A stretch of DNA of 62,245 bases from Thermoleophilia bacterium (GTDB taxonomy: Bacteria; Actinomycetota; Thermoleophilia; Gaiellales; JAICJC01). Below are positions 1 through 55,403 of the stretch, piece by piece. The notes beneath the pieces are model-generated. The model saw nothing but the letters and a program-made list of their open reading frames with translations. It searched no databases and was not told where the DNA came from. The stretch covers positions 1 through 62,245 of the forward strand of contig JAICJC010000004.1 in assembly GCA_025928655.1 (NCBI GenBank). Direction: 5' to 3'. How positions within the stretch are numbered: the first letter of the stretch is position 1; each line of letters opens with the position of its first letter. Position numbers and translations under genes: made by a program.

Positions 1-123
1 CGCGGCGTCCTGCTCCCCGCGACCATGAAGCTGCTGGGCGACTGGAACTGGTACCTGCCCCAGCCGCTGCGGTGGCTCCCCCGGATCGGCGCCGAGCCCT
101 CCCTGGAGGCGTCCGGCGACTGA
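1..123 (+). CDS. 3' end of MMPL/RND family transporter (partial)
   Basis: Frame 1 reads RGVLLPATMKLLGDWNWYLPQPLRWLPRI...*, a typical MMPL C-terminus; truncated by the window edge. Confidence 0.8.
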   Translation, partial: RGVLLPATMKLLGDWNWYLPQPLRWLPRIGAEPSLEASGD

Positions 124-1324
124 GTCTCCGGGCCTGGGGACGCGTCAGCACCGCCCGCACGCGGCGGTGATCGTCGGCGGTCGCGGCCAGGCCCAGCTTG
201 GCGAAGATGTTCGTGACGTGCTTCTCGACCGCCCGCTCCGTCACCACCAGGCGCGTTGCGATGCCGCGGTTCGAGAGGCCCTCCGCCATCCGCTCGAGCA
301 CCTCCCGCTCGCGCCCGGTCAGGTCGGCCAGCGGGTCGTCGGCCCGGCGGCGGCCGACGAGCTGGGCGACGACCGCCGGGTCGAGGGCCGAGCCGCCGCC
401 GGCGACCCGCCGCACCGCGTCGGTGAACTCGCCCACGTTGGCGACCCGGTCCTTGAGCAGGTAGCCGGTGCCCTCCGCCTGCTCGCTCAGAAGGCCGGTC
501 GCGTACTCCGCCTCGACGTATTGCGACAGCACGAGCACGCCGACCCCGGAGTGGCGCTCCCGGATGCGGCGGGCCGCCTGCAGGCCCTCGTCGGTGTGGG
601 TCGGCGGCATGCGGATGTCGACGATGGCGACGTCCGGCTTTGTGAACCCGACCCGGCGCACGAGATCGTCGGCGTTGTCCACCTGGCCCACCACCTCGAA
701 GCCCTCGCTCTCGAGCAGCCGGGCGATGCCCTCGCGCAGGAGCACCGAGTCCTCCGCCAGCACCACGCGCAGCGCCGCCGGCCCCGAGGGCGCCTCGGGC
801 ACGCCGGCCGCGACCACCTCGAAGACCGGCTGCGGCCGCTCGAAGTCCTTGAGCGCCCACTCGCCCAGGCTGACGACCGACACGCCCGCGGGCATGTCGT
901 CGGCGATCACGGCCCGGGTGGCCTCCGAGAGCAGGATCTGCCCGCCCCGGCCCGACTGGCACAGGCGCGCCGCGAGATGGACGCCGAGGCCGTGATAGCC
1001 CTGCTCGGCCAGCCGCGGCTCACCGGTGTGGAGGGCCATCCGCACCCGCACCATCGCCTCGGCCGGCCAGGGGTGGCCCGCCATCGCCCGCTGCACGTCC
1101 ACCGCGGCGGTGACGCCGTCGCGCGGCGTAGGGAAGGCGATGAAGCTCCCGTCTCCGGCCGTGTCCACCTCCGAGCCGCCGTGCCGCGCGACCACGTCGC
1201 GGAGCAGCCGGCGGTGGTCGCCAAGGACAGCGCCATAGCGGTCGCCGAGCTGCCGGATCAGGCCGGTCGATCCCTCGAGATCCGTGAAGAGCAGCGTGAC
1301 TGTGCCGGTGGGCAGTGAGGACAA
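2..1324 (-). CDS. Class III adenylate/guanylate cyclase - receiver - LuxR HTH fusion regulator (no stop inside window)
   Basis: Translated by hand, absent from the ORF track. TTG start with GGAGG RBS; LPTGTVTLLFTDLEGST, DTAGDG, VHLAARL (cyclase); RVVLAEDSVLLREG, IVDIRMPP, GYLLK (REC); LTGREREVL..MAEGLSN..VEKHVTNIFAKL (LuxR). Confidence 0.85.
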   Translation of the reverse strand, partial: MSSLPTGTVTLLFTDLEGSTGLIRQLGDRYGAVLGDHRRLLRDVVARHGGSEVDTAGDGSFIAFPTPRDGVTAAVDVQRAMAGHPWPAEAMVRVRMALHTGEPRLAEQGYHGLGVHLAARLCQSGRGGQILLSEATRAVIADDMPAGVSVVSLGEWALKDFERPQPVFEVVAAGVPEAPSGPAALRVVLAEDSVLLREGIARLLESEGFEVVGQVDNADDLVRRVGFTKPDVAIVDIRMPPTHTDEGLQAARRIRERHSGVGVLVLSQYVEAEYATGLLSEQAEGTGYLLKDRVANVGEFTDAVRRVAGGGSALDPAVVAQLVGRRRADDPLADLTGREREVLERMAEGLSNRGIATRLVVTERAVEKHVTNIFAKLGLAATADDHRRVRAVLTRPQARRLSRRTPPGRARRRSGGATAAAGAGTSSSRPAASWSRGAGRR

Positions 1325-1398: not shown

Positions 1399-2752
1399 GT
1401 GACGACGATCGTGTGGCCGCGGAACGACCTGCGCCTGGCGGACAACCCGGCGCTCGCGGATGCCGCCGCCCGCGGGCCGGTGGTGCCCGTCTACATCTGG
1501 GCGCCGGAGGAGGAGGGGGACTGGCCGCCGGGGGCCGCGTCGCGGTGGTGGCTGCACCGCTCGCTGGACGCGCTCGACGCCGGGCTTCGCCGCCACCGGT
1601 CGCGGCTCGTGATCCGGCGCGGGCCGGCGCTCGAGACGCTCCGCGCCCTCGCGGCGGAGACCGGCGCCGGTGCGGTCGCCTGGAACCGCCGGTACGAGCC
1701 CGCCGCGGTCGATCGCGACAGCGCCGTCAAGCGCGAGCTGGGTACGTGCCGCAGCTTCGGCGGGTCGGTGCTGCGCGAGCCGTGGACGCTCGCGACCGGG
1801 GGGGGGCGAGCCGTACCGGGTGTTCACGCCGTTCTGAGGGGCGCTGCGCGCGATGGGCGAGCCGGACGAGCCGCTCCCCGAGCCGGCCCTGCCGGCCCCG
1901 GAGGCGTGGCCCGAGTCGCTCGCGCTCGCCGACCTCGAGCTGCTGCCGCGGATCCCGTGGGACAGCGGCCTGGCCGAGGAGTGGACGCCGGGCGAGGCCG
2001 GCGGGCGGGAACGGTTGGACGACTTCCTGCGCCGCGCCGGCCGGTACGAGGGCGATCGCGACCGGCCGGCGCTGCCCAGCTCCCAGCTCTCCCCACACCT
2101 GCACTTCGGCGAGCTCTCGCCGCGCCAGGTGTGGACGGCGGTGCGCGACGCGGCCGGCCGCGCCGCCGAGCCGTACCTGCACCAGCTCGGCTGGCGCGAC
2201 TTCGCGCACCACCTGCTCTACCACTTCCCGCACACGGCATAGGAGCCCCTGCAGATCGAGTACTGGCACATGCCGTGGCGAAACGACCGCAGCGGGCTCG
2301 AGACGTGGCAGCGGGGCGAGACCGGCTTCCCGCTCGTCGACGCCGGGATGCGCGAGCTGTGGCAGCGGGGATGGCTGCACAACCGGGCGCGGATGGTGAC
2401 CGCGTCCTTCCTGACGAAGGACCTGCTCGTCGACTGGCGGGAGGGCGCGCGCTGGTACTGGGACACGCTCGTCGACGCCGACCTCGCGAACAACACGCTC
2501 GAGTGGCAGTGGGTCGCGGGCAGCGGGGCCGACGCGGCGCCGTACCACCGCATCTTCAACCCCGACACGCAGGCGAGCCGGTTCGATCCCGACGGCGCCT
2601 ACGCCGCCCGCTGGCTGGGCGAGGGACCCCGGCCCGAGCCGATCGTCGACCACGCGCTGGCGCGGCGGCGGGCGCTGGACGCGTACGAGAAGATCAGGCG
2701 CTCCCGGGGTTCGCGGGGCAGGCGACCCGCACCCGGCCGGTCGCCGACGTGA
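1399..2752 (+). pseudogene. phrB: Deoxyribodipyrimidine photolyase, disrupted
   Basis: RNDLRLADNPAL, SQLSPHLHFGELSPR, WQRGETGFPLVDAGMRELW, HNRARM, DADLANN, RIFNP motifs. Frameshift at G9 run 1798-1806, in-frame TGA at 1835-1837 (FTPF*), in-frame TAG at 2240-2242. Confidence 0.85.
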
Positions 2753-17255: not shown

Positions 17256-18343
17256 GCCCCGTTCCAGCCGAAGAGCTCCATCGCGTTGTCGTGGAAGACC
17301 TTGCGGTGCCAGGCCTCCGGGATGTTGCGGCCGATGTCGGCGATGTCGTCCGTGTCCCAGTGCGGGTAGTCGGAGGAGAAGCAGAGGATGTCCTCGGCGC
17401 CGATCAGCTCGAGCAGTCCCAGCATGTGCCGCCGGCTGGGCGCGATCTCGAGCGGCTGGGTCGTCACCCGGACGTGCTCGTAGAAATACTCGCTCGGCGC
17501 ACGCTTGAGCCACGGCGCCTCCCGCCGCAGGCCGCGGAAGTCCATGTCGAACCGCCACAGCACGGCCGGGATCCAGGCGACGCCCGCCTCCATCAGGAGC
17601 ACCCGCAGTCGCGGGAACTTCTCGAAGACGCCGTGCACGATCATGCTGACGAGGTGGGTCATGATCCCCTGCGGGATCAGGGTGTGGTGCTCGAGGTAGA
17701 GGCTCGGCACGCCGCTTCCAACCGGCGACAGGCGCATCGAGGCGAACGACTCCCCGGCCGCGTGGATCGCGATGGGCAGCCCGAGCTCCTCGGCCGCCTC
17801 GTAGATCGGATGGAAGAGCGGATGCCCGAACGGCTTCCCGATCCCGTTCGTCGCCAGCAGGCCGGCCGCGACCCGGGGGTGGCCCCCGATCCGGCGCAGC
17901 TCCCGGGCAGCCTCCTCGGGCAGCTGGTTCGCCAGGATCGCCGTCCCGTACAGGCGCGCGTCGCTGCCGTCGAGCCAGTGCTCGATCGACCAGTCGTTCG
18001 CCGCGCGGGCCAGCTCCGCCGCCCAGTACGGGTTCGCGTTCGCGGCCAGGTACGTGCCCGCCCCGAACGTCAGCAGACCGCGCTCGACCCGGTAGGGACC
18101 GAGCAGCTGCTCCTCCATCAGCGCGTGGCTCGAGCCGGGCGGCCCGCCCTCCTGCGGCCAGGCGTCGTCGCGGAACACCCCGCCGGGGTTGGGGTGGACC
18201 TCGCTCGGGATGACCGGCATGGGCTGTCGCCCGCCCGAGCGGGTCGCGTACTCGCGCCAGCCCGCCGACAGATACGGGAGGAGGACGTCCTGCGACGGCC
18301 AGTCGTGGTGGATATCGCAATCGACGATCGGCCCGCTGTACAC
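17252..18343 (-). CDS. Amidohydrolase_2 (TIM-barrel) family protein
   Basis: IVDCDIH, PIAIH, EAGVAW, FSSDYPHWD; leaderless GTG after TAGGCT. Confidence 0.85.
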   Translation of the reverse strand: MYSGPIVDCDIHHDWPSQDVLLPYLSAGWREYATRSGGRQPMPVIPSEVHPNPGGVFRDDAWPQEGGPPGSSHALMEEQLLGPYRVERGLLTFGAGTYLAANANPYWAAELARAANDWSIEHWLDGSDARLYGTAILANQLPEEAARELRRIGGHPRVAAGLLATNGIGKPFGHPLFHPIYEAAEELGLPIAIHAAGESFASMRLSPVGSGVPSLYLEHHTLIPQGIMTHLVSMIVHGVFEKFPRLRVLLMEAGVAWIPAVLWRFDMDFRGLRREAPWLKRAPSEYFYEHVRVTTQPLEIAPSRRHMLGLLELIGAEDILCFSSDYPHWDTDDIADIGRNIPEAWHRKVFHDNAMELFGWNGA

Positions 18344-18384
18344 CGGTGGCAGCCTAGCGACGGCGGTGTGGTGACCGTCCCCGC

Positions 18385-19743
18385 CTAGTCCTTGAACGGG
18401 TCGACGATGTTCGCGCCCGCCATCAGGACGACGACGGGAAGCAGGCGATGCGCGACCTTGATCGTGCCCGTCGCCTCGTGGGCACGGACGACGTCGTCGA
18501 GCTTGCGGTAGACGAACGGCGACTCGTCGACGTCGCCGCCCCGCACCTCGAGCGGGTAGCCGGTCTGGGCGCGGAACTCGTTCAGGCGCTCCGCCATCAT
18601 CTGGCGCGTGATCAGGCCCTTGCGAGTCCCCTTCCGGTTGCCCTTCGCCTTCGAGCGGCTCATCACCCGGCCGGCGCCGTGCACCGTCGAGCGGAGCGAG
18701 CGCCGGGCGAGCTCGGAGTCGACGCCCTCGACGACGACGGCCCAGTCGCCCATCGAGCCGCCGATGAACCCGGTCTGGCCGGGGAACGCGGGCGTCGCCC
18801 CCTTGCGCACGACGCGCACGAGCTCGTCGCCGTGGGTCTCGGTGAACGAGTAGTTGTGATGGTTGTGGACCGTCTCGAGGGCGGTGGTGCCGAGCAGCGA
18901 GAGCACCTCGGCGATCACGTGCTCGCGCCCGGCGTAGGCGTACTCGCCGGCGAGCTGCATCGCCCGCTCGTAGCGACGGCCGATCTCCGCCCGGGCCTCG
19001 GCGTCCTGCGGCCGCGCGCCCAGCTCCTGCGCCGCGTCCGTCGTCAGCGGGAGCAGCGACGGCGCCGCGTGCATCGACTCGCCGCCGGGCATCCGCGAGA
19101 AGAACGCCCGGTGCGCGGCCAGGTTCAGGAACCCCGTCGCGACGCCGTGCCCGAAGCCCCGGCTGCCGAAGTGGCATGCCGCCCAGACGGACCCGTCGTC
19201 GGGCTCGACCAGCAGGTCGACGTAGTGGTTGCCGCTCCCGACCGTCCCCAGCTGCGCCTCGGCGCGGGCGCGCAGCGACCAGCTGCGCTTCCGGCCCGCG
19301 ACGGTCTGGGTCAGCTCGGGGACCTCGCCCCAGATCGGCGAGTCGAACAGCTCGTGGTCGACGGGCGTCTCGTTCTTGCGGCCGATGCCGAAGCTGATCC
19401 GGGTACCGATCTCGTCCGCCAGCCGGCCCAGGTCGGGACGGATGTCTTCGAGGGAGAGACGCGTGCGCACCGCCATCACCCCGCAGCCGATGTCGTAGCC
19501 GACGCCGCTCGGCGACACCATGTCGCGGTAGGCGGCGACGCCGCCGATAGGCATCGAGTAGCCGACGTGGTTGTCGGCCATGAGCGCCGCGTCGCTGACC
19601 CAGCCGTGGCCCGCCACCGTCCTGATCTGGGAGACGGCCATGACGTCGTAGCTGTAGCCGAACACCCGGATCCGGCCGCCGTCGAACTCACGGTAAGGCT
19701 CGCTCTCGCGAACCGTCGTTGCGTCGTCGGGGAATCGGGTCAT
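18385..19743 (-). CDS. rtcB: RtcB RNA ligase (canonical motifs)
   Basis: ADNHVGYSMPIGG, GYDIGCG, GTVGSGNHY, HFGSRG, HHN, RKGATPA, GGSMG, HGAGR, DESPFVYR. Confidence 0.93.
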   Translation of the reverse strand: MTRFPDDATTVRESEPYREFDGGRIRVFGYSYDVMAVSQIRTVAGHGWVSDAALMADNHVGYSMPIGGVAAYRDMVSPSGVGYDIGCGVMAVRTRLSLEDIRPDLGRLADEIGTRISFGIGRKNETPVDHELFDSPIWGEVPELTQTVAGRKRSWSLRARAEAQLGTVGSGNHYVDLLVEPDDGSVWAACHFGSRGFGHGVATGFLNLAAHRAFFSRMPGGESMHAAPSLLPLTTDAAQELGARPQDAEARAEIGRRYERAMQLAGEYAYAGREHVIAEVLSLLGTTALETVHNHHNYSFTETHGDELVRVVRKGATPAFPGQTGFIGGSMGDWAVVVEGVDSELARRSLRSTVHGAGRVMSRSKAKGNRKGTRKGLITRQMMAERLNEFRAQTGYPLEVRGGDVDESPFVYRKLDDVVRAHEATGTIKVAHRLLPVVVLMAGANIVDPFKD

Positions 19744-19774
19744 GTCGTCATCTCTCTGGGTGTGGATGGAGTGA

Positions 19775-19845
19775 TAGCTCCACGGAGAGTCGAACTCCGG
19801 TTTCCAGGTTGAGAGCCTGGCGGCCTGCCGTTAGCCGATGGAGCC
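19775..19845 (-). tRNA. tRNA-Glu(CTC), no encoded CCA
   Basis: Cloverleaf: acceptor GGCTCCA/TGGAGCT, anticodon arm CCAGG-CTCTCAA-CCTGG, T arm CGGAG-TTCGACT-CTCCG. Confidence 0.88.
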
Positions 19846-19870
19846 GCGAAGGTCGCCCGCGACTCCCGAG

Positions 19871-19942
19871 CGCCCCGTGACGGAAGTCGAACCGTCGTCT
19901 CCTCGCAGACAACGAGGTGTCCTGCCATTGAACGAACGGGGC
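19871..19942 (-). tRNA. tRNA-Asp(GTC)-like, atypical, no encoded CCA
   Basis: Acceptor GCCCCGT/ACGGGGC, D arm GTTC..GGAC, anticodon arm CCTCG-TTGTCTG-CGAGG (T at position 37), T arm GACGG-TTCGACTT-CCGTC (8-nt loop). Confidence 0.78.
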
Positions 19943-19972
19943 TCTGGAGGGCGGGTCGTGCGGCGGGCCACG

Positions 19973-20000
19973 AAAAAGGGCGTCCCGCTGGGCCGCCCTC
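19973..20000 (-). terminator. Attenuator terminator 2
   Basis: GAGGGCGGCCC-AGC-GGGACGCCCTT followed by TTT. Confidence 0.8.
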
Positions 20001-20038
20001 AACTCGAACAGTTCGGTGTCGTCGCCGGTGTCGTTACG

Positions 20039-20197
20039 TCAGCGAGCCCGCGGAGCCGGGTTGAGGGAAGCGTCCGTCGGCAGGCATCGCCGACGGCGTG
20101 GTGTATCGACGGCATGCGGCTGCACGTCGTTACACAACGATTCAGCACCGGCGAGGCGCAGCCTCGCCTGTATGTACTCGGTTTCGATCTGTTTCAC
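20039..20197 (-). CDS. Putative leader peptide uORF2 (52 aa, MKQIETEYIQARLRL...PRRRRC...APRAR)
   Basis: AGGAG RBS 8 nt before GTG; its 3' end carries CCCTCAAC, complementary to the 5' arm of terminator 2. Confidence 0.65.
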   Translation of the reverse strand: MKQIETEYIQARLRLAGAESLCNDVQPHAVDTPRRRRCLPTDASLNPAPRAR

Positions 20198-20211
20198 GTA
20201 CGGTACTCCTG

Positions 20212-20250
20212 AAACGACGAAGGGCGGCCCGGTATTCCCGGGTCGCCCTC
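20212..20250 (-). terminator. Attenuator terminator 1
   Basis: GAGGGCGACCCGG-GAATA-CCGGGCCGCCCTT followed by a weak U tail; stem homologous to terminator 2. Confidence 0.7.
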
Positions 20251-20274
20251 GGCCAGAACCGTATGTTGAGCGGT

Positions 20275-20391
20275 CTAGCTGAGGACGATCCGATCCTTCC
20301 GATCGAGCTGCATCGGGTACGGTGCATGCGTCGACGCGGCCGGTACGAGGCCGGGTTCGGGCATCCACACGGTTGTGATCTGACTGATCAT
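20275..20391 (-). CDS. Putative leaderless leader peptide uORF1 (38 aa, MISQITTVWM...DRKDRIVLS)
   Basis: ATG 7 nt after the -10 box; last 18 nt pair 16/18 with the 5' arm of terminator 1. Confidence 0.65.
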   Translation of the reverse strand: MISQITTVWMPEPGLVPAASTHAPYPMQLDRKDRIVLS

Positions 20392-20398
20392 CGTTACT

Positions 20399-20427
20399 AC
20401 CATAGCGCGTGACGCGGCAAAGTACAA
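20399..20427 (-). promoter_or_regulatory. Sigma70-type promoter TTGTAC-N17-TATGGT
   Basis: -35 at 20427-20422 and -10 at 20404-20399, pointing to uORF1, the tRNAs and rtcB. Confidence 0.7.
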
Positions 20428-20464
20428 CCCGCTTTGGTGAATTCGTAGCGTAAGTGTCCGCAGG

Positions 20465-21553
20465 CTACGCCAGCGACCGCTCGACGAGCCGCTGGAAATG
20501 CTGGATGAGGTGCTCGCTCGCGAGCATGAGGCGGCCCTCCGCCAGGCCGCCGGACGTGGCCGCCCGCTGGATGGACTCGACCAGCGCCTGGTCCTCGTCG
20601 AACACCTGGCCCCCGAACTCGTCCAGGGCGGCGATCTCCTCCTCGGACACCTCGTCGCCGTAAAAGCTGTCGGACACGGCGAGCGTCCGGTCGGGGGCGA
20701 GCGGGATGAAGTAGAAGGCCGACAGGTTGGGGGCACCGGGGAACACGTTGATCGTGAACGTGGGCCAGAGCCAGTGGAAGTGCGCCTCGGCGACGGGACC
20801 GACCGGGTTGTACGGCAGGCCGCCGTTCTCGCTCTCGGCGCCCACCCGCGTGCGCGACACCTGGCTCGAGAACCACTCGTCGGCCGTCAGCGCGTAGGTC
20901 TCCGGGCTGACGTCGATCACCCGCGAGAAGCTCGGATGGGCGGTCGGGCAGTGGTAGCACTCGAGATAGTTCTCGACGACCGCCTTCCAGTTCGCCGCGA
21001 TCTCGCTCTCCGCGTGATCGCGGAACCGCATCCTGCCGAGGTCGACGCCGGCGTCGGCCACGATCTGCGGCAGCCCGCCGAGGTAGCGGGCCAGCGGCTG
21101 GGCGTCGAGGTTCCGGTTGACGAAGACGAACGGGCCCCACGTGTCGACGGCGACGGGCACGAGGCCGAACTCCGCCCGGTCGAACCCCGGCTCGAGCTCG
21201 CTGCGCGGCGCCGAGCGCAGGCAGCCGTCCAGCCCGTACGTCCAGGCGTGGTAGGGGCACTGGAGCGACATCCGCCTCCCCCGGCCCTCGGCCACCTCGG
21301 TGGCGCGGTGCCGGCAGATGTTGACGAAGGCGTTCAGGTTCCCGTCCTCGTCACGGACGACCACGATCGGCACCAGGCCGGCCCGGGTGGTGAAGAACTG
21401 GCCCGGCTCGCTGACCCAGTCGAGCACGCCGGCGTAGAGCCAGCTGTCGGCGAACACCCGCCGCTGCTCGAGCCGGAAGACCCCGGGGTCGCAGAACCAG
21501 TCGAACGGGAGGGTGATTCCCCGGTCGAGCCGGGAACCGAGTTCCGTGGCCAT
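20465..21553 (-). CDS. Rieske non-heme iron oxygenase alpha subunit (choline monooxygenase-like)
   Basis: NICRHR...CPYHAWTY, NWKAVVENYLECYHCPTAH, EDQ. Confidence 0.9.
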   Translation of the reverse strand: MATELGSRLDRGITLPFDWFCDPGVFRLEQRRVFADSWLYAGVLDWVSEPGQFFTTRAGLVPIVVVRDEDGNLNAFVNICRHRATEVAEGRGRRMSLQCPYHAWTYGLDGCLRSAPRSELEPGFDRAEFGLVPVAVDTWGPFVFVNRNLDAQPLARYLGGLPQIVADAGVDLGRMRFRDHAESEIAANWKAVVENYLECYHCPTAHPSFSRVIDVSPETYALTADEWFSSQVSRTRVGAESENGGLPYNPVGPVAEAHFHWLWPTFTINVFPGAPNLSAFYFIPLAPDRTLAVSDSFYGDEVSEEEIAALDEFGGQVFDEDQALVESIQRAATSGGLAEGRLMLASEHLIQHFQRLVERSLA

Positions 21554-21630
21554 GCGCCGATCGTACACGCACGCCGCAGGTGGGCGGCCGCTGAGGGGTA
21601 GGGCGGCCGCCCACCGGGCGGGCTCCGTCG

Positions 21631-23913
21631 TCAGTCGGCGACGGGTACCGGCTCGCCGGTCGTGACCGGCGGGCGATCGGGCCGGCGCTCCTCGGGCGGC
21701 TCGATCGTGATGTTGGGCAGAGCCCGATCGAGCCAGCGCGGGATCGTCCACGAGCGGTCGCCGAGCAGCGACAGCAGCGCGGGCACGAGCGTCAGCCGGA
21801 TGATCAGGGCGTCGGTCAGGATCGCGACGCCCAGCAGCAGACCGAACTCCTTCGAGACCCGGTCAGGGTTGAGCAGGAAGGCGAAGAACACCGCCGACAT
21901 GATCAGCGCCGCGGCCACGATCACGCGGCCGACGCCGGCCATGCCGTCCCGCACGGACTGGAACGTGCTGCTGCCGTGGACGCGCTCCTCGCGGATGCGG
22001 CTCATGAGGAACACCTCGTAGTCCATCGACAGGCCGAACAGGATCGCGAACGCGATCGGGGGCACGAAGCTCTCGATCGGGCCGGTGCGATCCAGGCCGA
22101 TGACGCCCATGCCGTGACCCAGCTGGATCACGAACGTCAGCACCGCGAACCCGACCACCGCCGAGGCGAGGGTCGTGACGGCGGCCTTGACGGCGACCAC
22201 GAGCGAACGGAACGCCATCGCCATCACGATGAAGGTGATGCCGACGATGTAGAGCAGGAACCACGGCGCCCGGTCGACGATCCGGTTGCCGATGTCCGTG
22301 AACGCCGCGTTCGACCCCGACACGTAGGCGTGCGCCGACGAGCCCTCGAGGGCGTTCGGGATCACGGTGCTGCGCAGCGTCGAGACGATGTCGTCGGTGT
22401 GCGAGTCCTGCGGCTTGTACTTCGAGTAGGTGTCGACGATCGCCACGGACGCCTTGTCGGGCGACTTGGCGTTGTAGATCGGGGGCACCACCTCGGCGAT
22501 GCCCGGCACGCGCTTGAAGGCCGCGTCGAGCTTCGCCGCCGCGTCATGGTCGGATTGCAGGTCGACCACCACCGGGATCGGCTCGGTGAACCCGGGGCCG
22601 AAGCCGGCCGACAGGAGGTCGTACGCCTGCCGGGTGGTCTGGCTCTTCGGCGCGGTGCCGGCGTCGGCCAGGCCGAGCCGGGCCTTCACCACCGGTGAGG
22701 CGACGGCCAGCAGGATCACGACGGCGACCGGGAGGACGTACTTCGCCCGGCCGGAGACGAACCGGCCCCATGCGGCGACCGGGGTCTTCGCCTGGCCGGC
22801 GCGGGAGTCGTCGGAGCCGCGCATGCCGAGCCGGCCACGGTCGATCCTGTGGCCGAGCAGCGCCAGCACCGCCGGCAGCAGCGACTGCGCCAGGAGCACG
22901 GCCGTCAGCACGCCGAGCGCGCTTCCGAGACCGAGCTTCGTGATGAAGTCGATGCCGATGAACGCGAGGCCCGTGATCGAGATCGCCACCGTCGTGCCTG
23001 CGAACAGGACGGCACGGCCGGCGGTCGCACCCGCCGCGGCGGCGGCATCCTGGGGCGACAGCCCGTCGTGCAGGTACTGCCGGAACCTGGTCACGATGAA
23101 GAGCGTGTAGTCGATGCCGACCCCGAGGCCGATCATCGGCACCAGGATCTCGGTCACGGTGTTGAAGTTGGTGAACCGCGCCGCCAGGTACAGGAGCATG
23201 AACGCCCCGGCCACCGCGGTTATCGCGAAGAGCAGCGGGATCGCGGTCGGGACGAGCGCCCGGAACAGGATCATCAGGACGATGAACGCGGCGATCAGGC
23301 CGATGATCTCGCTGCCGCTGCTCGAGACGTCGCCCTGCTCGGCCTCGCCGGTGAACTGGACGTCGATGCCGGCCTTCTCGCCGATCGTCCGCATCTGGTT
23401 CTCGACGTCGACGATGTCGGAGCGGTGGATCTTGAAGCTCTCCTGGTCGTACTGCACGTCGAAGAACGCGATCCGCCCGTCCTTCGAGAGCTGATGCGAG
23501 CTCCCCTTGAGCGGGTCGGTGATGGCGCTGATGTCCTTCGCCGTCTGGTCGATCGAGTGCTGCGAGGCGGTGCCGGCGGCGAGCATCCGGTTCACGGCCG
23601 CCGAGCGGTCGGGCGAGTCCAGGCTCTGGCCGTGCGGTGCCGCGACCACGACCCGCAGCGCGGCGCCCTTCTGGCCGCCGAACTTGGCGTTGACCAGGTC
23701 GGTCGCCTTCTGGACGTCCGACCCGGGGAGCTTGAACTCGTCCACGAGCTTGCCGTGGAAGGCGCCGTTCAGGCCGCCGAGCACGACGAAGATCGCGAGC
23801 CAGGCCGCGATCACCCGCCACGGATGGCGGGCGAAGCGGCCGTACATGCGGGCGAGGCTGCCGGTGTGCGCGACGCGCCGGCCCGCGTTGGTATCTGAGT
23901 CGAAGGATGACAT
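21631..23913 (-). CDS. MMPL family transporter
   Basis: GLGVGIDYTLFIVTRFR, FGLSMDYEVFLMSRIREE; GAAGGAGG RBS. Confidence 0.92.
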   Translation of the reverse strand: MSSFDSDTNAGRRVAHTGSLARMYGRFARHPWRVIAAWLAIFVVLGGLNGAFHGKLVDEFKLPGSDVQKATDLVNAKFGGQKGAALRVVVAAPHGQSLDSPDRSAAVNRMLAAGTASQHSIDQTAKDISAITDPLKGSSHQLSKDGRIAFFDVQYDQESFKIHRSDIVDVENQMRTIGEKAGIDVQFTGEAEQGDVSSSGSEIIGLIAAFIVLMILFRALVPTAIPLLFAITAVAGAFMLLYLAARFTNFNTVTEILVPMIGLGVGIDYTLFIVTRFRQYLHDGLSPQDAAAAAGATAGRAVLFAGTTVAISITGLAFIGIDFITKLGLGSALGVLTAVLLAQSLLPAVLALLGHRIDRGRLGMRGSDDSRAGQAKTPVAAWGRFVSGRAKYVLPVAVVILLAVASPVVKARLGLADAGTAPKSQTTRQAYDLLSAGFGPGFTEPIPVVVDLQSDHDAAAKLDAAFKRVPGIAEVVPPIYNAKSPDKASVAIVDTYSKYKPQDSHTDDIVSTLRSTVIPNALEGSSAHAYVSGSNAAFTDIGNRIVDRAPWFLLYIVGITFIVMAMAFRSLVVAVKAAVTTLASAVVGFAVLTFVIQLGHGMGVIGLDRTGPIESFVPPIAFAILFGLSMDYEVFLMSRIREERVHGSSTFQSVRDGMAGVGRVIVAAALIMSAVFFAFLLNPDRVSKEFGLLLGVAILTDALIIRLTLVPALLSLLGDRSWTIPRWLDRALPNITIEPPEERRPDRPPVTTGEPVPVAD

Positions 23914-50679: not shown

Positions 50680-51662
50680 TGCGGGCGTCCTTCGAAAGCG
50701 CCGGGGTGCAAGTGGACGTCGACTGCCAGCTTCCATGGGTCGGCGACCTCATCTCGGAGGGGACCGCCGGCGAGCTGTGTCCGCCCGCCGGCCGTTCGGC
50801 GTCGCTTCGGGTGCAGGTCGAGAGCGACCATCGTCCGTTCAGCGCGCACGGCTGGCGGTACATGAGCCGCGGGGTGTGGCAGCGCCGCGACGGGGTGGTC
50901 GTCGAGGACGTCTGCACGACCGGGTTCGATCTTTACGCCCGGGTGCTCGGGGATGGGGCGACCTTCACGTACCGGTGGCGGCCCCGCCCCAGGAGCCGCA
51001 CGGCGGCCGTCGCGCTGCGGTCGCGGTTTCACCTGCTCGCCCGGGCGGCCCTCCTCCAGTACCCCGCCCTGTGGTGGGCGGGGGCGCACGGGCGCGCACC
51101 GCTCCACGCGTCCGCGGTGGCGGAGCCTCATGCCACCCCGCTCGTCTGCGCGGCGAGCGGGGTCGGCAGGTCGACGCTGCTGGTCGCGGAGGTGGAGCGG
51201 GGCCACCGAACGACGGGCGACAACCTGGGCGTGAGCGACGGCGAATCGGTGTGGGGCCTGCTGGAGCCGGCACGTGTGGTCGGCGGCGCAGGGCGACGGA
51301 TGCCGCATGGCCGGCGAGAGATCAGGATCTCCGGCCGCGCCGCGGCGCTGACGCCGTCGTGCGTCGTGACGCTCGAGCGCGGTGACGGCGAGCGGCCGGT
51401 CCTGCTGCCGTGTGCGCCCGAGACGGCTGCACGGGCGCTGGTGACGAGCACCTACATGGCCGGCGAGCTGCGGCGGTACTGGGTATTCGCGGCGGTTCTC
51501 GCGGCGGCCACCGGCCGAGGTCCGGCGCATCCTGCGGTCGCCGACACGGCGTCGCGTCTGACGACCCGCCTGCCCTGCTGGACGGTCGCGCTCGGGCGGG
51601 AGCCGGGGGCGCGACTGGACGATCTCCTTTCGCGGGCGGAGGTCGAGACATGGGTGTCGTAG
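50676..51662 (+). CDS. HPr-kinase-related P-loop protein (diverged)
   Basis: PLHASAV followed by AASGVGRSTLL and TTGDN, resembling LHA...G.SG.GKST...DD. Confidence 0.55.
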   Translation: MMRASFESAGVQVDVDCQLPWVGDLISEGTAGELCPPAGRSASLRVQVESDHRPFSAHGWRYMSRGVWQRRDGVVVEDVCTTGFDLYARVLGDGATFTYRWRPRPRSRTAAVALRSRFHLLARAALLQYPALWWAGAHGRAPLHASAVAEPHATPLVCAASGVGRSTLLVAEVERGHRTTGDNLGVSDGESVWGLLEPARVVGGAGRRMPHGRREIRISGRAAALTPSCVVTLERGDGERPVLLPCAPETAARALVTSTYMAGELRRYWVFAAVLAAATGRGPAHPAVADTASRLTTRLPCWTVALGREPGARLDDLLSRAEVETWVS

Positions 51663-53098
51663 CCCGGGAGCCAACCGGTCTCGTGCCGGAGGCGGGATCG
51701 CGCGTCCGCTTGATCGAGAACGCGGCCCTGCCGGCCGACCGCGCGGCGCTGCGCGTACTCCGGGCGGGGGTACGGCACGCGGACCTGGCGGCCCCGGCCG
51801 TCGCCCTTCCCGACTTCCATCACAAGGGCGACAAGGAGATGCCTTCCAGCATCGTCGTCGCCACGAGGTCGACGATCCAACCGACCTATACGAGCGCGTC
51901 GCTCAACTGCGGCATGGCGCTCGTGACCACGGATATCGATCTCCCGGGCGATGCCGCCGTCGCCGAGTTCTACCGCCGCTTTCGCGAGAGCTACCCCTAT
52001 CCGCCGTCATACCGCCGCGACCTGACGGGGTGGGACGTGGTCCGGTGCGCCGCCGAGGGCGCGGACTTCGCGGCCGAGCAGTTCGGGGTGCACCGGGAGG
52101 AGGTGAGCCGGGTCGAGCTCGGCGGCCGGGTCGACGTCGCGCATCTCGGCGGCGCCGGCCGCGTCCGGCGCGAGCTCCCGTGGTCTGTAAGGCAGCTCGG
52201 CCGGATCAGGTTCGGGACCATCGGCCCGAGCAACCACTTCCTCGAGCTTCAGGAGGTCGCCGAGGTGTTCGACCCGGCCGCGGCCGCCGCGCTCGGGCTC
52301 GCACTCGGGCAGGTCACCCTCCAGTACCACGGCGGCGGCGGCTCGCTCCCCGGCGAGCTGGGCCTGCTGTTCGGGCGACGGAAGCGCCGGCCGCGCGCGG
52401 TCGGGATGCAGATGGCCGTCCAGAAGCCGCTCTACCACTTCGGCAGGGCGCGCTCGATCGCGGAGCTCCGGCGCAGGCGCGCGCTCTTCTTCTCGGACGA
52501 CCCTCCACCGGTCGACCGCAGCACCGCCGAGGGCGAGCAGCTCTCCCTGGCGAACGCGATGGCCATGAACTACGGCTTCGCCTTCCGGCTCTCCACCTAC
52601 GCGAGGCTCCGCGTGCTTCTGCACAAGCACCTGGGGGCTCGCAGTGTGCGCCTCCTCGTCGACACCTCCCACAACTCGATCTATGAGGAGGAGGTGGACG
52701 GCGAGCCCGCGATCGTGCATCGGCACAACGCCTGCCGGATCTTCCCGGCCTCCGAGCTCGCAGGTCACCCCGTGTTCGCGCGCACGGGCCAGCCGCTCCT
52801 CCTGCCCGGAACGGGCAGGACGTCCTCGTACGTCTGCATCCCGGGCGAGCATCCCGAGCGGTCGCTGCACAGCGTCTGCCACGGGGCCGGGTCGGTGGTC
52901 GCGGATCTCTCCCGCCGGGCGATGCCGACGAGCCGGGCGGGCTGCGGCAGTACGCTCCGCTTCACGTACGGGACCGCCCCGCCCGCCCGCGTGCCCCATA
53001 TCGACGACGCCGGCATCGACGCCGTGGTCGATCTGCTCCGCGACAGCGGCATCATCCGGCCCGTCGTGCGGCTGCGGCCTTTCGCGGGGCTGACGTGA
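51650..53098 (+). CDS. Diverged RtcB-family protein
   Basis: GGAGG RBS; LPDFH, NCGM, GTIGPSNHFLELQ, YHGG, SHN, HRHNA, LPG, SVCHGAG, RLRP. Confidence 0.8.
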   Translation: MGVVAREPTGLVPEAGSRVRLIENAALPADRAALRVLRAGVRHADLAAPAVALPDFHHKGDKEMPSSIVVATRSTIQPTYTSASLNCGMALVTTDIDLPGDAAVAEFYRRFRESYPYPPSYRRDLTGWDVVRCAAEGADFAAEQFGVHREEVSRVELGGRVDVAHLGGAGRVRRELPWSVRQLGRIRFGTIGPSNHFLELQEVAEVFDPAAAAALGLALGQVTLQYHGGGGSLPGELGLLFGRRKRRPRAVGMQMAVQKPLYHFGRARSIAELRRRRALFFSDDPPPVDRSTAEGEQLSLANAMAMNYGFAFRLSTYARLRVLLHKHLGARSVRLLVDTSHNSIYEEEVDGEPAIVHRHNACRIFPASELAGHPVFARTGQPLLLPGTGRTSSYVCIPGEHPERSLHSVCHGAGSVVADLSRRAMPTSRAGCGSTLRFTYGTAPPARVPHIDDAGIDAVVDLLRDSGIIRPVVRLRPFAGLT

Positions 53099-53544
53099 GC
53101 GACGGCGCGTACGCGGTCGAGCGCTGGCGGCGCAACCGACGGGTGATCGCGCCCGCCGACGCCCTCGTCGCCGAGGTGGCGCCGTTCCGGAGGAGGAACG
53201 GCGCGCTGATCCGGCGGGTGGGAGCACTCGCCGCGGGCAGCCCGGTGGTCGTGTGCTCGCCGCCCCCCTTCGCCCGGTATCGCTGCCGGCGGTTCGCATC
53301 GGCCGCGGGGATCGACATCGACCGCGAGTACCTCGCCCTCCCGAGGCCTGGGGCACCCGCCTACCTCGTCGAGGACGCTCCGGCCGCGACCGCGTACTTC
53401 GTGCGCTCGATCCTCGTGCCGCCGCCCGGGAGGATCTGGACCGCGCCTCTCCGTCTGTGCGTGTCCGTCGTCTCGTGGCTTCCGAACCCCGGGCTGGTCC
53501 TGCGATCGGTCGCGCCGCGCACGGTGGTGGGGACGCGGCGGTGA
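53095..53544 (+). CDS. Hypothetical protein
   Basis: GTGA-coupled on both sides; EYLALP...AYLV segment. Confidence 0.6.
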   Translation: MSDGAYAVERWRRNRRVIAPADALVAEVAPFRRRNGALIRRVGALAAGSPVVVCSPPPFARYRCRRFASAAGIDIDREYLALPRPGAPAYLVEDAPAATAYFVRSILVPPPGRIWTAPLRLCVSVVSWLPNPGLVLRSVAPRTVVGTRR

Positions 53545-54578
53545 CCGACCTGCTTCCCGTGGACGGCCGGACCGTGCCCGCAGTCGATGCCCCGGCGCCC
53601 TCGATGGCGGAGGTCGTCCGCGGCACCCCGGGGGTGCGTTCGGTCGTCATCGGTGTGTCCAAGGACCCGAACGCCAAGGTGACGGTGCTGCTCGTCTCGG
53701 AGCGGGATGGGATGCCCGTGATGGCGGTGAAGGTGCCGACGACGCCGATCGCCGCTGCGGCGGTCGAGTCCGAGACGGCCGCGCTCGTCGAGCTGCACGC
53801 CCGCTACTCCGGCGCCGCCATCCGAACGATCCCGCGCGTGGTCCGCATGGTCGAGGTCGACGGTCTGCGGGGGGTCGTGATGACGGCGGTACCGGGGACG
53901 CCGATGACCCGTGGGTACGTGTGTCGGCGCCGCTCGCGGCGCGGGCGGACGGAGGCGCACCTGAGCGCCGTATCGGAATGGCTCGCGTCCCTCCACTCCG
54001 TCACCGGCGCGGGGTCCGCTCCGATCGACATGGACATGGGGGTGAAGTCGGAGCTCGAGACGCGGTTCGGGGATGACCGGCGCCTGGGGGATGACCTCGG
54101 CCGGCTTGCTGCGATCCACGCCAGGCTGGGGAGCGACCACGCCACGCGAGCCGTTGTGCACGGAGATCTGTGGTTCGGGAACGTGCTGGTGGGGCCGGGA
54201 GGAGTCACCGGCGTCGTCGACTGGGAGGCGGCGTGCGTGGGCGGCGAGCCGGTCCGGGACCTGGCCCGGTTCGCGATCATGTACGCCCTCTACCTCGACG
54301 AGGGTACGGGCGTGCCCGGCCGGTGGCATGGGCGCGACGCGAAGCGCTCGCGACCCTGGGGCGACGGGATCGAGTTCGCGGTGAACGGCACCGGGTGGTT
54401 CCCTGACCTCTTCCGGGGCTTTCTCAGAGACGGGTTACGGCGCCTCGGGGCATCCCCCGCCCTGTGGCGTGACGCCGTGCTGGCGGGGGTCGCCGACGTC
54501 GCCGCCCGTACCGACGACCCGGCGTTCGGGCGCTTGCACCTGGACCTTTTTCGCCGCCTGACCGGACCTACGGGCTAG
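53541..54578 (+). CDS. APH/choline-kinase-like phosphotransferase
   Basis: AVKVP, HGDLWFGNVL, VVDWE. Confidence 0.82.
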   Translation: MTDLLPVDGRTVPAVDAPAPSMAEVVRGTPGVRSVVIGVSKDPNAKVTVLLVSERDGMPVMAVKVPTTPIAAAAVESETAALVELHARYSGAAIRTIPRVVRMVEVDGLRGVVMTAVPGTPMTRGYVCRRRSRRGRTEAHLSAVSEWLASLHSVTGAGSAPIDMDMGVKSELETRFGDDRRLGDDLGRLAAIHARLGSDHATRAVVHGDLWFGNVLVGPGGVTGVVDWEAACVGGEPVRDLARFAIMYALYLDEGTGVPGRWHGRDAKRSRPWGDGIEFAVNGTGWFPDLFRGFLRDGLRRLGASPALWRDAVLAGVADVAARTDDPAFGRLHLDLFRRLTGPTG

Positions 54579-54599: not shown

Positions 54600-55403
54600 C
54601 TAGGAGCCGACGGCGTGGTGCGAGCGCTCTTCGTCGACCCGGCCGATCCGGGCCCAGCGGCTGGCCTGCGTCCGGTTCGTGACGTTGAGCTTCCGGTAGA
54701 TGTTGGACAGGTGGAACTTCACGGTCTGCTCGCTGACCCAGAGCTGTCGCGCGATCTCGGCGTTCGCCATACCTTCGGAGACATGCGTGAGGATCTCCCG
54801 CTCGCGGCGGGTCAGGTGCGCTCCCAGGGCTGCCCGATCGTCCCTTCTGGGCGGTTCGGCCGGTGCGGGCCCGTGCCCCTCGGAGCCCACGACGAGCCCG
54901 GGCGCGGCGGGGACCGAGGAGGGCGGCGCGAAGACGATCGAATGCTCGAAGATCTGCCGGATCGCCGAGGCGAGGTCGTCGGGCCGGACGTGCTTCATCG
55001 CGTACGCCGTGGCGCCGGCGCTGAGCACGTCGCTCACGACGGACGCCTCGACCTGGGTCGAGAGGACGATCACCTTGATGTCGGTGCGGGCCTCGATGAC
55101 ATCTCGCAGATAGGAGGTGCCGCCGATCTGGCCGGGTCCGAAATCGATGTCGGTGACGACGATGTCAGGGCGGTGCTCGACGATCAGCGCGAGACCCTCC
55201 GCAGGCGAGGTCGCCTTGCCGAGGGTGGGCAGGCCAAGTCCGCGGAGAACCGCCTCGACGGCGTCGAGCCAGAGCGGATAGGCATCGATCACGACCGCTG
55301 ACGCGCGCCCCTCTCCGTGCCCGTCGCGATCTTGGCGGAGTGTCCCCACGACATCCCCCGATGGTGTAGGACGGTTTCCTTCCGGAAATCCCGTGGCAAC
55401 CAT
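54600..55403 (-). CDS. NarL/LuxR response regulator
   Basis: REC domain (IVVTD, AYAMK) plus LTRREREIL..TVKFHLSNIYRKL; start uncertain. Confidence 0.88.
   Translation of the reverse strand: MVATGFPEGNRPTPSGDVVGTLRQDRDGHGEGRASAVVIDAYPLWLDAVEAVLRGLGLPTLGKATSPAEGLALIVEHRPDIVVTDIDFGPGQIGGTSYLRDVIEARTDIKVIVLSTQVEASVVSDVLSAGATAYAMKHVRPDDLASAIRQIFEHSIVFAPPSSVPAAPGLVVGSEGHGPAPAEPPRRDDRAALGAHLTRREREILTHVSEGMANAEIARQLWVSEQTVKFHLSNIYRKLNVTNRTQASRWARIGRVDEERSHHAVGS

Follow-up and report, generated by a model that had tools for sequence, protein, structure and literature searches.

Leader, tRNA genes and rtcB on the minus strand

How do two tRNA genes come to stand between a leader made of short open reading frames (ORFs) and hairpins and the RNA ligase gene rtcB, and could this leader govern their transcription? 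The question is raised by the minus strand of the DNA analysed here, a stretch of 62,245 nt from a Gaiellales genome (G000; 3.69 Mb in 193 contigs, 82% complete). This whole stretch is called the window, and coordinates are positions in it unless another locus is named. For comparison we used the genomes of the same Gaiellales family (65 genomes, G numbers) and loci extracted from relatives' genomes or from metagenome contigs (L numbers). The unpublished genome G016 entered only three tallies, those of the leader/tRNA DNA search, the Rieske orthologues and the TROVE domains. The reading that we favour, with a probability of about 0.6, is that the locus is a reduced Gaiellales island whose leader would act as two serial ribosome-dependent attenuators in front of the tRNA genes and rtcB.

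A first-pass annotation of the window had listed a promoter, an upstream ORF (uORF1), a terminator (T1), uORF2, a second terminator (T2), two tRNA genes and rtcB in this order on the minus strand, and all of these elements were found in their places. The promoter (20399..20427) consists of a -35 box TTGTAC (20427-20422), a 17-nt spacer and a -10 box TATGGT (20404-20399), and matches the consensus at 7 of 12 positions. The ATG of uORF1 (38 codons, 117 nt, 20275..20391) lies 7 nt past the -10 box. The last 13 nt of this ORF, CGTCCTCAGCTAG (20287-20275), provide the 5' strand of a possible antiterminator 1. The G+C-rich hairpin T1, a candidate first terminator (20211..20250), is formed by GAGGGCGACCCGG...CCGGGCCGCCCTT and carries the tail CGTCGTTTC. 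uORF2 (52 codons, 20039..20197) has a GTG start with the Shine-Dalgarno sequence AGGAG 8 nt before it, and its stretch CTTCCCTCAACCCGG (20070-20056) is the 5' strand of antiterminator 2. The hairpin T2, a candidate second terminator (19973..20000), reads GAGGGCGGCCC AGC GGGACGCCC and is followed by a T run (tail TTTTT). Between T2 and the tRNA genes lies GCCCTCCAG (19944..19952), which comparison with G001, G052, G054, G056 and G080 identifies as a 9-nt relic of the 5' end of an RNA of about 200 nt. A supernumerary tRNA-Asp(GTC) gene (19870..19942) begins 30 nt past T2 and is followed by a supernumerary tRNA-Glu(CTC) gene (19775..19845), and rtcB (18385..19743) begins 31 nt past the latter.

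A strict consensus scan of positions 18000-21000 reported no promoter, placed its sole terminator-like site inside rtcB and left the promoter, T1 and T2 unflagged. The scan is too strict for leader elements and was used neither for nor against them. Promoter and hairpins were instead judged to be more than chance because of the comparison with relatives. In 10 other genomes of the family, tRNA genes likewise have homologues of the promoter, the short ORF and the hairpin in front of them, and a sequence of the form TTG(T/C)(A/G)(C/T)-N17-TAT(G/C)(G/T/C)T stands before uORF1 in nine of these, the tenth (G008) having the -10 box only. Hairpins of the type GAGGGCG...CGCCCTT with a T-rich tail occur twice in the whole 3.69-Mb assembly, namely as T1 and T2, and second-unit homologues of T2 are present in G001, G054, G056, G080 and G073. 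A single contig from an independent DNA run spans 18923-20600 with 3 differences; thus, the junctions of the locus are not an assembly artefact. Rfam (E<=1, positions 18000-22000) returned the two tRNAs and a chance match to asX3 only; the leader falls into none of the known riboswitch or T-box families.

The gene rtcB encodes an RNA 3'-phosphate/5'-OH ligase of 452 amino acids. It had been called canonical, and the full-length match to Pfam PF01139 bears this out (3e-67 and 228 bits, the cut-off being 27; positions 1-424 of the 426 in the profile). When aligned to the Pyrococcus horikoshii RtcB chain 4dwr_B, the protein keeps the motifs GYDIxCGV, GSGNH, HxGSRGxGH, HN and HGAGR, which we take to be the metal-binding and nucleotidyl-histidine motifs of the solved structures. 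Orthologues within the genus share 74-93% identity.

A tRNA-array island and its reduced forms

When the leader and tRNA region was searched against the DNA of the 65 family genomes, strong matches were obtained in two, G001 (E 5e-106) and G052. In G052 the promoter, uORF1 and T1 (75% identity to G000) lie directly upstream of an array of 16 tRNA genes, and the arrays of G054, G056 and G080 comprise 22-24 tRNAs each. All four arrays enclose a Ro60/Rsr gene (rsr) with a TROVE domain. Three of these genes carry a vWA_Ro60 domain as well, and the G052 ORF gave TROVE alone. In the family as a whole, TROVE was found in 7 of 65 genomes, and all seven copies lie inside such arrays. The most complete order is seen in G078, where a conserved RNA, about 20 tRNAs, rsr, tRNA Glu-Pro-Thr and rtcB follow each other; in this long-read assembly rsr and rtcB are frameshifted and split into several frames. 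The leader itself is present in 11 of the 65 genomes (G000, G001, G008, G019, G024, G052, G054, G056, G073, G078 and G080), in five of which rtcB directly follows the island tRNAs (G000, G001, G008, G019 and G078). Judged from contig coordinates, the rtcB orthologue of G080 would lie about 4.6 kb beyond its array. Outside the family, the 401 genomes of the order yielded only three matches of 31 nt.

Metagenome contigs were scanned for the T1-type hairpin, which gave 29 loci, 21 of them with tRNAs downstream on the same strand. Five of the 21 reach an rtcB that is 92-94% identical to that of G000; it is preceded by Ala-Arg-Pro-His-Asp-Glu in L129, L136 and L145 and by Pro-His-Asp-Glu in L120 and L123. 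Four more run on into His and rsr. Among the eight loci without a tRNA, five end within about 460 nt of the hairpin, and L128 offers 837 nt of downstream sequence free of tRNAs.

Relative to G001 and G052, the source genome has lost the RNA of about 200 nt except for 9 nt, all tRNAs but Asp and Glu, and rsr. The relic GCCCTCCAG marks a deletion breakpoint, and two contigs from RNA libraries, derived from relatives, depart from the G000 sequence at 19946 into this RNA. G001 keeps Leu, Asp and Glu. Arranged by tRNA number, the loci form what appears to be a decay series (about 20, 6, 4, 3 and 2 tRNAs) that always retains the leader, Asp, Glu and rtcB, and separate reductions in G008 and G019 likewise keep Glu and Asp beside rtcB. 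On the strength of these comparisons the G000 locus is a reduced island, made of the leader, two array tRNAs and rtcB, and not a stand-alone invention. The idea of a purpose-built operon of two tRNAs, with which the first-pass annotation had started, is thus contradicted. The full island would consist of the promoter, one or two units of leader ORF and terminator, the RNA of about 200 nt, an array of 16-24 tRNAs, a YrlA-like RNA, rsr, a few tRNAs and sometimes rtcB; deletions would then have reduced it in G000 to a single transcription unit of leader, Asp, Glu and rtcB. The series points to this set as the part that selection keeps. An empty insertion site could not be defined: orthologues of the upstream Rieske oxygenase exist in 17 of 31 genus genomes, and the flanks are non-syntenic beyond G001. 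As a separate observation, the roughly 40 nt before Glu-Pro-Asp-rtcB in G019 (contig C103, L005:1-545) resemble, by eye, the 3' end of rsr seen in L025, with a small ORF further up, so that this region looks like a deleted rsr.

Both tRNA predictions of the first-pass annotation hold. ARAGORN finds exactly two tRNAs in the window, Asp(GTC) and Glu(CTC), with cloverleaves for both, and Rfam RF00005 agrees (47.4 bits for Asp and 59.3 bits for Glu, gathering score 29). Their lack of an encoded CCA was also confirmed, yet the housekeeping tRNA-Asp and tRNA-Glu genes lack it too, and it is therefore unremarkable. Further copies in G000, a tRNA-Asp(GTC) gene on contig C17 and tRNA-Glu(CTC) genes on C20 and C41, are quite different in sequence from the pair linked to rtcB. 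A canonical anticodon loop has U33 and a purine at position 37. The linked tRNA-Glu (CUCUCAA) conforms to this, and the linked tRNA-Asp does not, as its loop is UUGUCUG (U37, G38) against CUGUCAC (A37, C38) in the housekeeping gene. Compared with the array members of G052, tRNA-Asp is 96% and tRNA-Glu 89% identical, against 75% for the surrounding leader, and the anticodon stem of tRNA-Glu shows two compensatory double changes (CCAGG/CCTGG against CCGCG/CGCGG). Because they are better conserved than the leader, and because of these compensatory changes, the island tRNAs of G000 are, as far as sequence comparison can tell, still under selection.

Unusual loops recur elsewhere in the island. In a tally of L061-L064, L075, L077-L080, L020 and the window, 133 island tRNAs had a 3-nt anticodon, of which 16 carried C33, 24 carried G37 and two carried U37. 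Island tRNA-Asp loops read UUGUCUG, UUGUCGG, CUGUCGA or CCGUCAA. The tRNA-Glu(CTC) gene at C20:28821-28893, the third of its kind in G000, has C33 and the loop CCCUCAA, as do most island tRNA-Glu genes.

Several further RNAs were seen in the island. Between the leader and the first array tRNA, nine genomes have a conserved head RNA of about 150-210 nt (L016:1916-2118, L061:4311-4458, L064:3845-4046, L063:7139-7342(-), L062:1239-1451, L075:2254-2466(-), L076:267-469(-), L077:2991-3195 and L078:3018-3225), of which the window keeps the relic at 19952-19944. It starts with GCCCUCC(C)AGG and ends in GGGAACUGGAGC; a hairpin inside it, GGUUCGAGUCC, resembles a T arm and has covarying pairs in its stem. 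RNAalifold gave 48 pairs for it, 12 with compensatory changes, and no Rfam family matched at E<=10. YrlA-like matches of 33-39 bits, below the gathering score of 69, were obtained 60-140 nt upstream of rsr in four of seven Rsr loci scanned (L062:2635-2703, L077:3851-3970, L078:7747-7811 and L075:933-1001(-)), one of them beside a weak match to a Deinococcus Y RNA; Rfam gave no Y RNA match at 18000-22000 of the window. Inside the tRNA array of G080 lies an RNase P RNA-like gene (L062:6119-6441, G080:C2:360118-360440). It scores 23.5 bits against a gathering score of 100, with an alignment that spans the whole model, including P1-P4 and the motifs GAGGAAGGUCCGG, UAGAUGGAUG and ACAGAAUCCGGCCUA, and a specificity domain that does not align. 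It is the sole RF00010 match in that 92%-complete genome; in G000, G054, G056 and G052, normal RNase P RNA copies lie elsewhere and score 215-254 bits. The G052 leader is immediately preceded by a match to the type II hammerhead ribozyme at L061:3762-3852 (-), with 35.3 bits against a threshold of 37.

The leader as a candidate switch

The first-pass annotation had taken the two hairpins for attenuators that sense stalled ribosomes. We examined the alternative structures of the leader by aligning the loci. Across 11 loci, 96.7% of the T1 cells are paired, with two covarying pairs; the foot GAGGGCG/CGCCCUY is invariant and the top covaries. A stretch YCCUC always lies in the last codons of uORF1; it and the bases 3' of it can pair with the 5' flank of T1 and with its foot. 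The resulting helix, antiterminator 1, is mutually exclusive with T1. Its pairing amounts to 87.6% and falls to 34-57% if the partner strand is slid by 1-3 columns. Three of its pairs covary, and its covariation score (0.302 against 0.132) was reached by 0 of 500 shuffles. Of the 44 cells in the four flanking pairs, 38 are matched, whereas permuting the flanks between loci gives 26.2 +/- 2.8. A more conservative permutation test left out L124, which precedes a pilin-like gene, and L117, which is of the unit-2 type; without these two doubtful loci 30 of 36 cells are matched (p about 0.002), and with one representative for each of five groups 17 of 20, equalled by four of 120 permutations (p about 0.03). 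Duplex energies beat shuffles in most units. The second unit offers a comparable helix, with CCCUCAAC complementary to GUUGAGGG at the T2 foot in G000, CCUCGUCGCAG to CUGCGAUGAGG in G054 and CCCUCAUCUC to GAGAUGAGGG in G080. When the whole leader of G000 is folded, the antiterminator is the minimum-energy state.

The arrangement of the leader ORFs fits a role in such a switch. In every locus with the promoter region available, an ATG or GTG stands 6-10 nt past the -10 box; with so short a distance, the message is probably leaderless or nearly so at uORF1. All 14 sequence types examined place the uORF1 stop 24-38 nt ahead of T1, irrespective of whether it is TAG, TAA or TGA, and the antiterminator strand is always within the last 10 or so codons. 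In G000, G001 and G052 uORF1 is 117 nt each, without insertions or deletions. The differences between the three are not enriched at third codon positions. Of the 38 residues 15-24 are exchanged, and conservation is confined to the 3' 40 nt, a pattern that would follow if translation itself, and not its product, were what counts. A functional uORF1 peptide was therefore rejected. In 12 of the 14 types, which are related sequences without a codon run, an in-frame GAT codon precedes the YCCUC core by 9-28 nt. The uORF1s together hold 20 GAT against 7 GAC codons, and GAT makes up 18% of Asp codons genome-wide. Besides this, a CGCATGC-like motif (in frame ..His-Ala..) occurs in most leader ORFs of both units and across genera, with the exception of uORF1 of G052 and G054. 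In G000 it is seen at approximately 20329-20323 and 20096-20090, inside the palindrome GCGTCGACGC.

From these features the following course may be proposed. Once a ribosome had translated the ORF as far as its stop, it would cover the YCCUC stretch, the terminator would form and transcription would end. If ribosomes were late, stalled early or scarce, YCCUC would be free to engage the GAGGGCG foot of the hairpin that follows, and RNA polymerase could continue through the tRNA genes and rtcB. Placing two such units one after the other would hold basal expression down. The transcript would then be cut by RNase P and 3' processing into the two tRNAs and an rtcB mRNA, and the cell would gain extra tRNA-Asp and tRNA-Glu together with a ligase that reseals breaks with 2',3'-cyclic-phosphate and 5'-OH ends. 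Of this scheme, the anatomy, the homology to the arrays, the mutually exclusive covarying helices and the intact RtcB motifs are seen in the sequences. That the uORFs are translated, that transcription terminates at T1 and T2, that translation stress induces the unit and what RtcB acts on are points that we infer.

Contigs that match the locus at 95% identity or more were found in three soil or rhizosphere RNA libraries. As they are assembled contigs and DNA carry-over is possible, they speak for presence and bridging and not for transcript ends or levels. One contig (19913-20259) runs from T1 through uORF2 and T2 into tRNA-Asp, of which it contains the first 30 nt. Another (19726-19970) spans both tRNAs and the start of rtcB without a difference, and a third (20276-20384) covers uORF1. 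Two further uses of these data were rejected. The transcription start could not be read from RNA cover: 20387-20600 is uncovered in all three runs and a contig ends at 20384, but at low depth. Ranking expression by depth across rtcB and the leader was dropped as well, depth being uninformative.

A number of observations weigh against two ribosome-dependent attenuators. The loci are related and fall into about five independent sequence groups, so the covariation statistics overstate the support. In folds constrained by a ribosome mask, G001 and G052 alone have the antiterminator as minimum-energy state, and G054 and G056 have it in part; in G080 and G008 the terminator wins under every condition and the antiterminator is absent. 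As minimum-energy folds are not uniform, we relied on covariation instead. T1 and antiterminator 1 of G000 each contain an A.C mismatch, and as a U-tract the tail CGTCGTTTC of T1 is poor. In DNA of 68% G+C, frames that stay open for 38 codons are common, and in G078 the frame meets no stop ahead of T1, although the twin locus L135 from a metagenome has one. The hairpins of L119 and L140 resemble ordinary gene terminators, and that of L124 precedes a pilin-like gene and not tRNAs. Upstream regions of rtcB homologues had been named as a place to look for conserved architecture. The leader was recovered in 11 of 65 family genomes, as described, but seven of 12 related rtcB loci have neither tRNAs nor leader upstream, and the linkage is not obligatory. 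Of the proposed ribosome-sensing attenuators, then, the conserved T1 and the mutually exclusive helices with covariation stand, and the 3' ends at T1 and T2, translation of the uORFs and induction are predictions.

L124, a metagenome contig of 141 kb, is also of interest in itself. A 51-codon ORF and a hairpin of this type, for which a perfect alternative helix of 10 bp exists (1505-1609, minus strand), precede a pilin-like gene with N_methyl and Laminin_G_3 domains (2-1246, minus strand), and the switch design may thus be used more widely.

The hairpins could be real switches that are set by a protein or RNA acting in trans, with the short ORFs incidental, which we consider unlikely. Such a factor would find binding candidates in the invariant GAGGGCG/CGCCCUC foot, in the GUCGUU tail, which is conserved beyond the need of a U-tract, and in the CGCAUGC motif that recurs in most, though not all, uORFs. 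It would also suit the unconserved peptides without third-position excess, the minimum-energy folds of G080 and G008 that lack the antiterminator, and the precedent of the Anabaena array under control of the protein TrcR (PMC10272220). The geometry of the ORFs speaks for the ribosome, however. Their start is fixed relative to the -10 box, their stop keeps its distance to T1 in all 14 types despite a changing stop codon, and the antiterminator strand never leaves the last 10 or so codons. Moreover, no regulator gene accompanies the island in the loci examined, and the leader matches no Rfam family. About equally improbable, in our view, is that leader and tRNAs of G000 are decaying debris, with rtcB living on residual read-through and tRNAs that are non-functional or serve as processing signals. 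At least three deletions separate G000 from a G052- or G078-like form, rsr and the RNA of about 200 nt are lost, T1 and antiterminator 1 contain mismatches, and many rtcB orthologues do without a leader. The U37/G38 of tRNA-Asp in place of the housekeeping A37/C38 could be added to this list, but the intact G052 array shares the U37 loop, which is therefore not a decay mutation. Decay is also at odds with tRNAs that are better conserved than their leader, with the compensatory changes in the tRNA-Glu stem and with the kept length and frame of uORF1. Leader, Asp, Glu and rtcB persist in G000, G001 and five metagenome contigs while other tRNAs vanish, and the independent reductions of G008 and G019 end with the same two tRNAs beside rtcB.

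Finally, T1 and T2 might simply terminate two small independent genes, the tRNAs and rtcB being transcribed from a constitutive promoter of their own past T2. The same type of hairpin does appear to end ordinary genes in L119 and L140, and one RNA-library contig starts at 19970, 3 nt past the T2 tail. A promoter at this place had been named in advance as an observation that would speak against the attenuators. The gap between T2 and tRNA-Asp measures just 30 nt and contains no TANNNT box, and no consensus promoter was found between T2 and rtcB, nor a promoter-like site anywhere in 18000-21000, by the strict scan that also missed the leader promoter. In relatives T2 directly abuts the conserved RNA, RNA-library contigs bridge T2 in two runs, and the small ORFs have no conserved peptide. 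We regard a separate promoter as very improbable.

A bolder version of the two-attenuator reading is that the leader is a tRNA-specific damage sensor, coupled to nuclease-resistant replacement tRNAs and a ligase, i.e. a protein-free immune circuit of cis-acting RNA against anticodon nucleases. GAU, the minority Asp codon, stands 9-28 nt upstream of the antiterminator strand and often beside a Glu codon, so a ribosome short of intact tRNA-Asp or tRNA-Glu would stall where the strand stays free. The altered loops (U37 or G37, C33) of the replacement tRNAs could resist the nuclease, and RtcB would mend the cut housekeeping tRNAs. If true, this would explain why both reductions, in G000/G001 and in G008/G019, kept Asp and Glu beside rtcB. 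It is a doubtful proposal, and the link of the unit to ribotoxins or phage, drawn already in the first-pass annotation, is likewise one that we infer.

RtcB partners and comparison with known systems

The first-pass annotation had noted that RtcR is missing from the window, and this can be extended: profiles of RtcR (PF06956), RtcA (PF01137), archease and TROVE gave no match in the whole 82%-complete genome. The window does contain a second, distant RtcB paralogue at 51410-53098 (+) (Pfam 5.6e-41, match 51791-53086). It is followed by an overlapping ORF of 149 amino acids without a Pfam family (53095-53544, +) and an APH-type phosphotransferase (53253-54578, +), and a LuxR-type response regulator lies at 54600-55403 on the opposite strand.

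According to Chen et al. (PMC4201824), tRNA-like Y RNAs adjoin rsr, and in Salmonella they lie in an rsr-yrlBA-rtcBA operon under control of RtcR and sigma54. The full island of the relatives resembles this operon, and also Rsr and YrlA of Mycobacterium smegmatis treated in the same source, in linking RtcB, Ro60/Rsr and a YrlA-like RNA 5' of rsr. It differs in that genuine tRNAs occupy the position of the Y RNAs and in the proposed attenuation in place of an enhancer-binding activator; the RtcR, RtcA and TROVE profiles found nothing in G000. The island thereby ties the biology of Ro60 and Y RNAs physically to tRNA arrays.

The leader itself can be compared with those of trp, pheL and the Bacillus subtilis bmrB-bmrCD genes, as far as described in the portions used of PMC4191407 and PMC3082878. 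Common to all are a promoter-proximal short ORF, an intrinsic terminator (a candidate one here) and a competing helix that depends, or here would depend, on the ribosome. In contrast to these leaders, the Gaiellales leader has an ORF that is apparently leaderless, shows neither an evident segment-1 hairpin nor a run of control codons and contains two units in tandem, and its output consists of tRNAs and an RNA ligase and not of biosynthetic or efflux genes. The whole switch would be compact, at about 450 nt.

Jumbo phages have been described to supplement their tRNAs with RtcB or Rnl ligases and occasionally with TROVE (PMC7824862). The closest phage RtcB, of Tunturiibacter phage Tunturi_5, shares 46% identity and lies among 16 same-strand tRNA genes in a stretch of 11 kb. 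A phage origin of the island is a possibility, but the Gaiellales island is chromosomal and has an attenuator-like leader, and no phage genes were seen in the loci read. Long tRNA arrays are also reported from genomes, plasmids and phages of Mycobacterium (PMC5966550), which are similar as patchy, long supernumerary arrays in Actinomycetota. A term search of the accessible text of that paper gave no mention of RtcB, ligase, promoter, terminator or autoantigen, and this text describes no regulatory leader. In our literature search no attenuator-controlled tRNA array and no array with Ro60 was described, though the supplementary datasets of PMC8421152 may already list arrays from Actinomycetota.

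The closest parallel is the long tRNA array (L-array) of cyanobacteria. By the account of Santamaria-Gomez et al. (PMC8421152), long arrays of up to 43 genes in one orientation spread horizontally and occur in Actinobacteria among other phyla; that of Anabaena sp. PCC 7120 is otherwise silent and is induced by ribosome-targeting antibiotics, and rtcB neighbours cyanobacterial L-arrays and is co-induced via promoter repeats. These repeats were later assigned to the repressor TrcR (PMC10272220). Induction of a tRNA set with rtcB under translational stress is therefore already published. With only two tRNAs, G000 falls short of the L-array in gene number, yet both are supernumerary and homologous to members of arrays of 16-24 genes, and the distribution is patchy (leader in 11 of 65 family genomes, TROVE with array in 7 of 65). 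Supernumerary, patchy tRNA sets, the link to rtcB and the proposed logic of extra tRNAs plus tRNA repair are shared with Anabaena. The regulation differs: there a repressor acts on direct repeats of the promoter, here leader ORFs and terminators are proposed to attenuate in cis. The Gaiellales island further belongs to Actinomycetota, includes rsr/Ro60, a YrlA-like RNA and the RNA of about 200 nt, and has rtcB in the same transcription unit. New here would be attenuators built from leader ORFs in tandem, the connection with Ro60 and a surviving unit of minimal size, while spare tRNAs with rtcB under stress were known before. Long supernumerary arrays are widespread and poorly understood, and Anabaena provides the only functional study that we found. 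If our reading is correct, a second phylum would have placed spare tRNAs and rtcB under attenuators that read translation, which would be convergent evidence for emergency translation kits.

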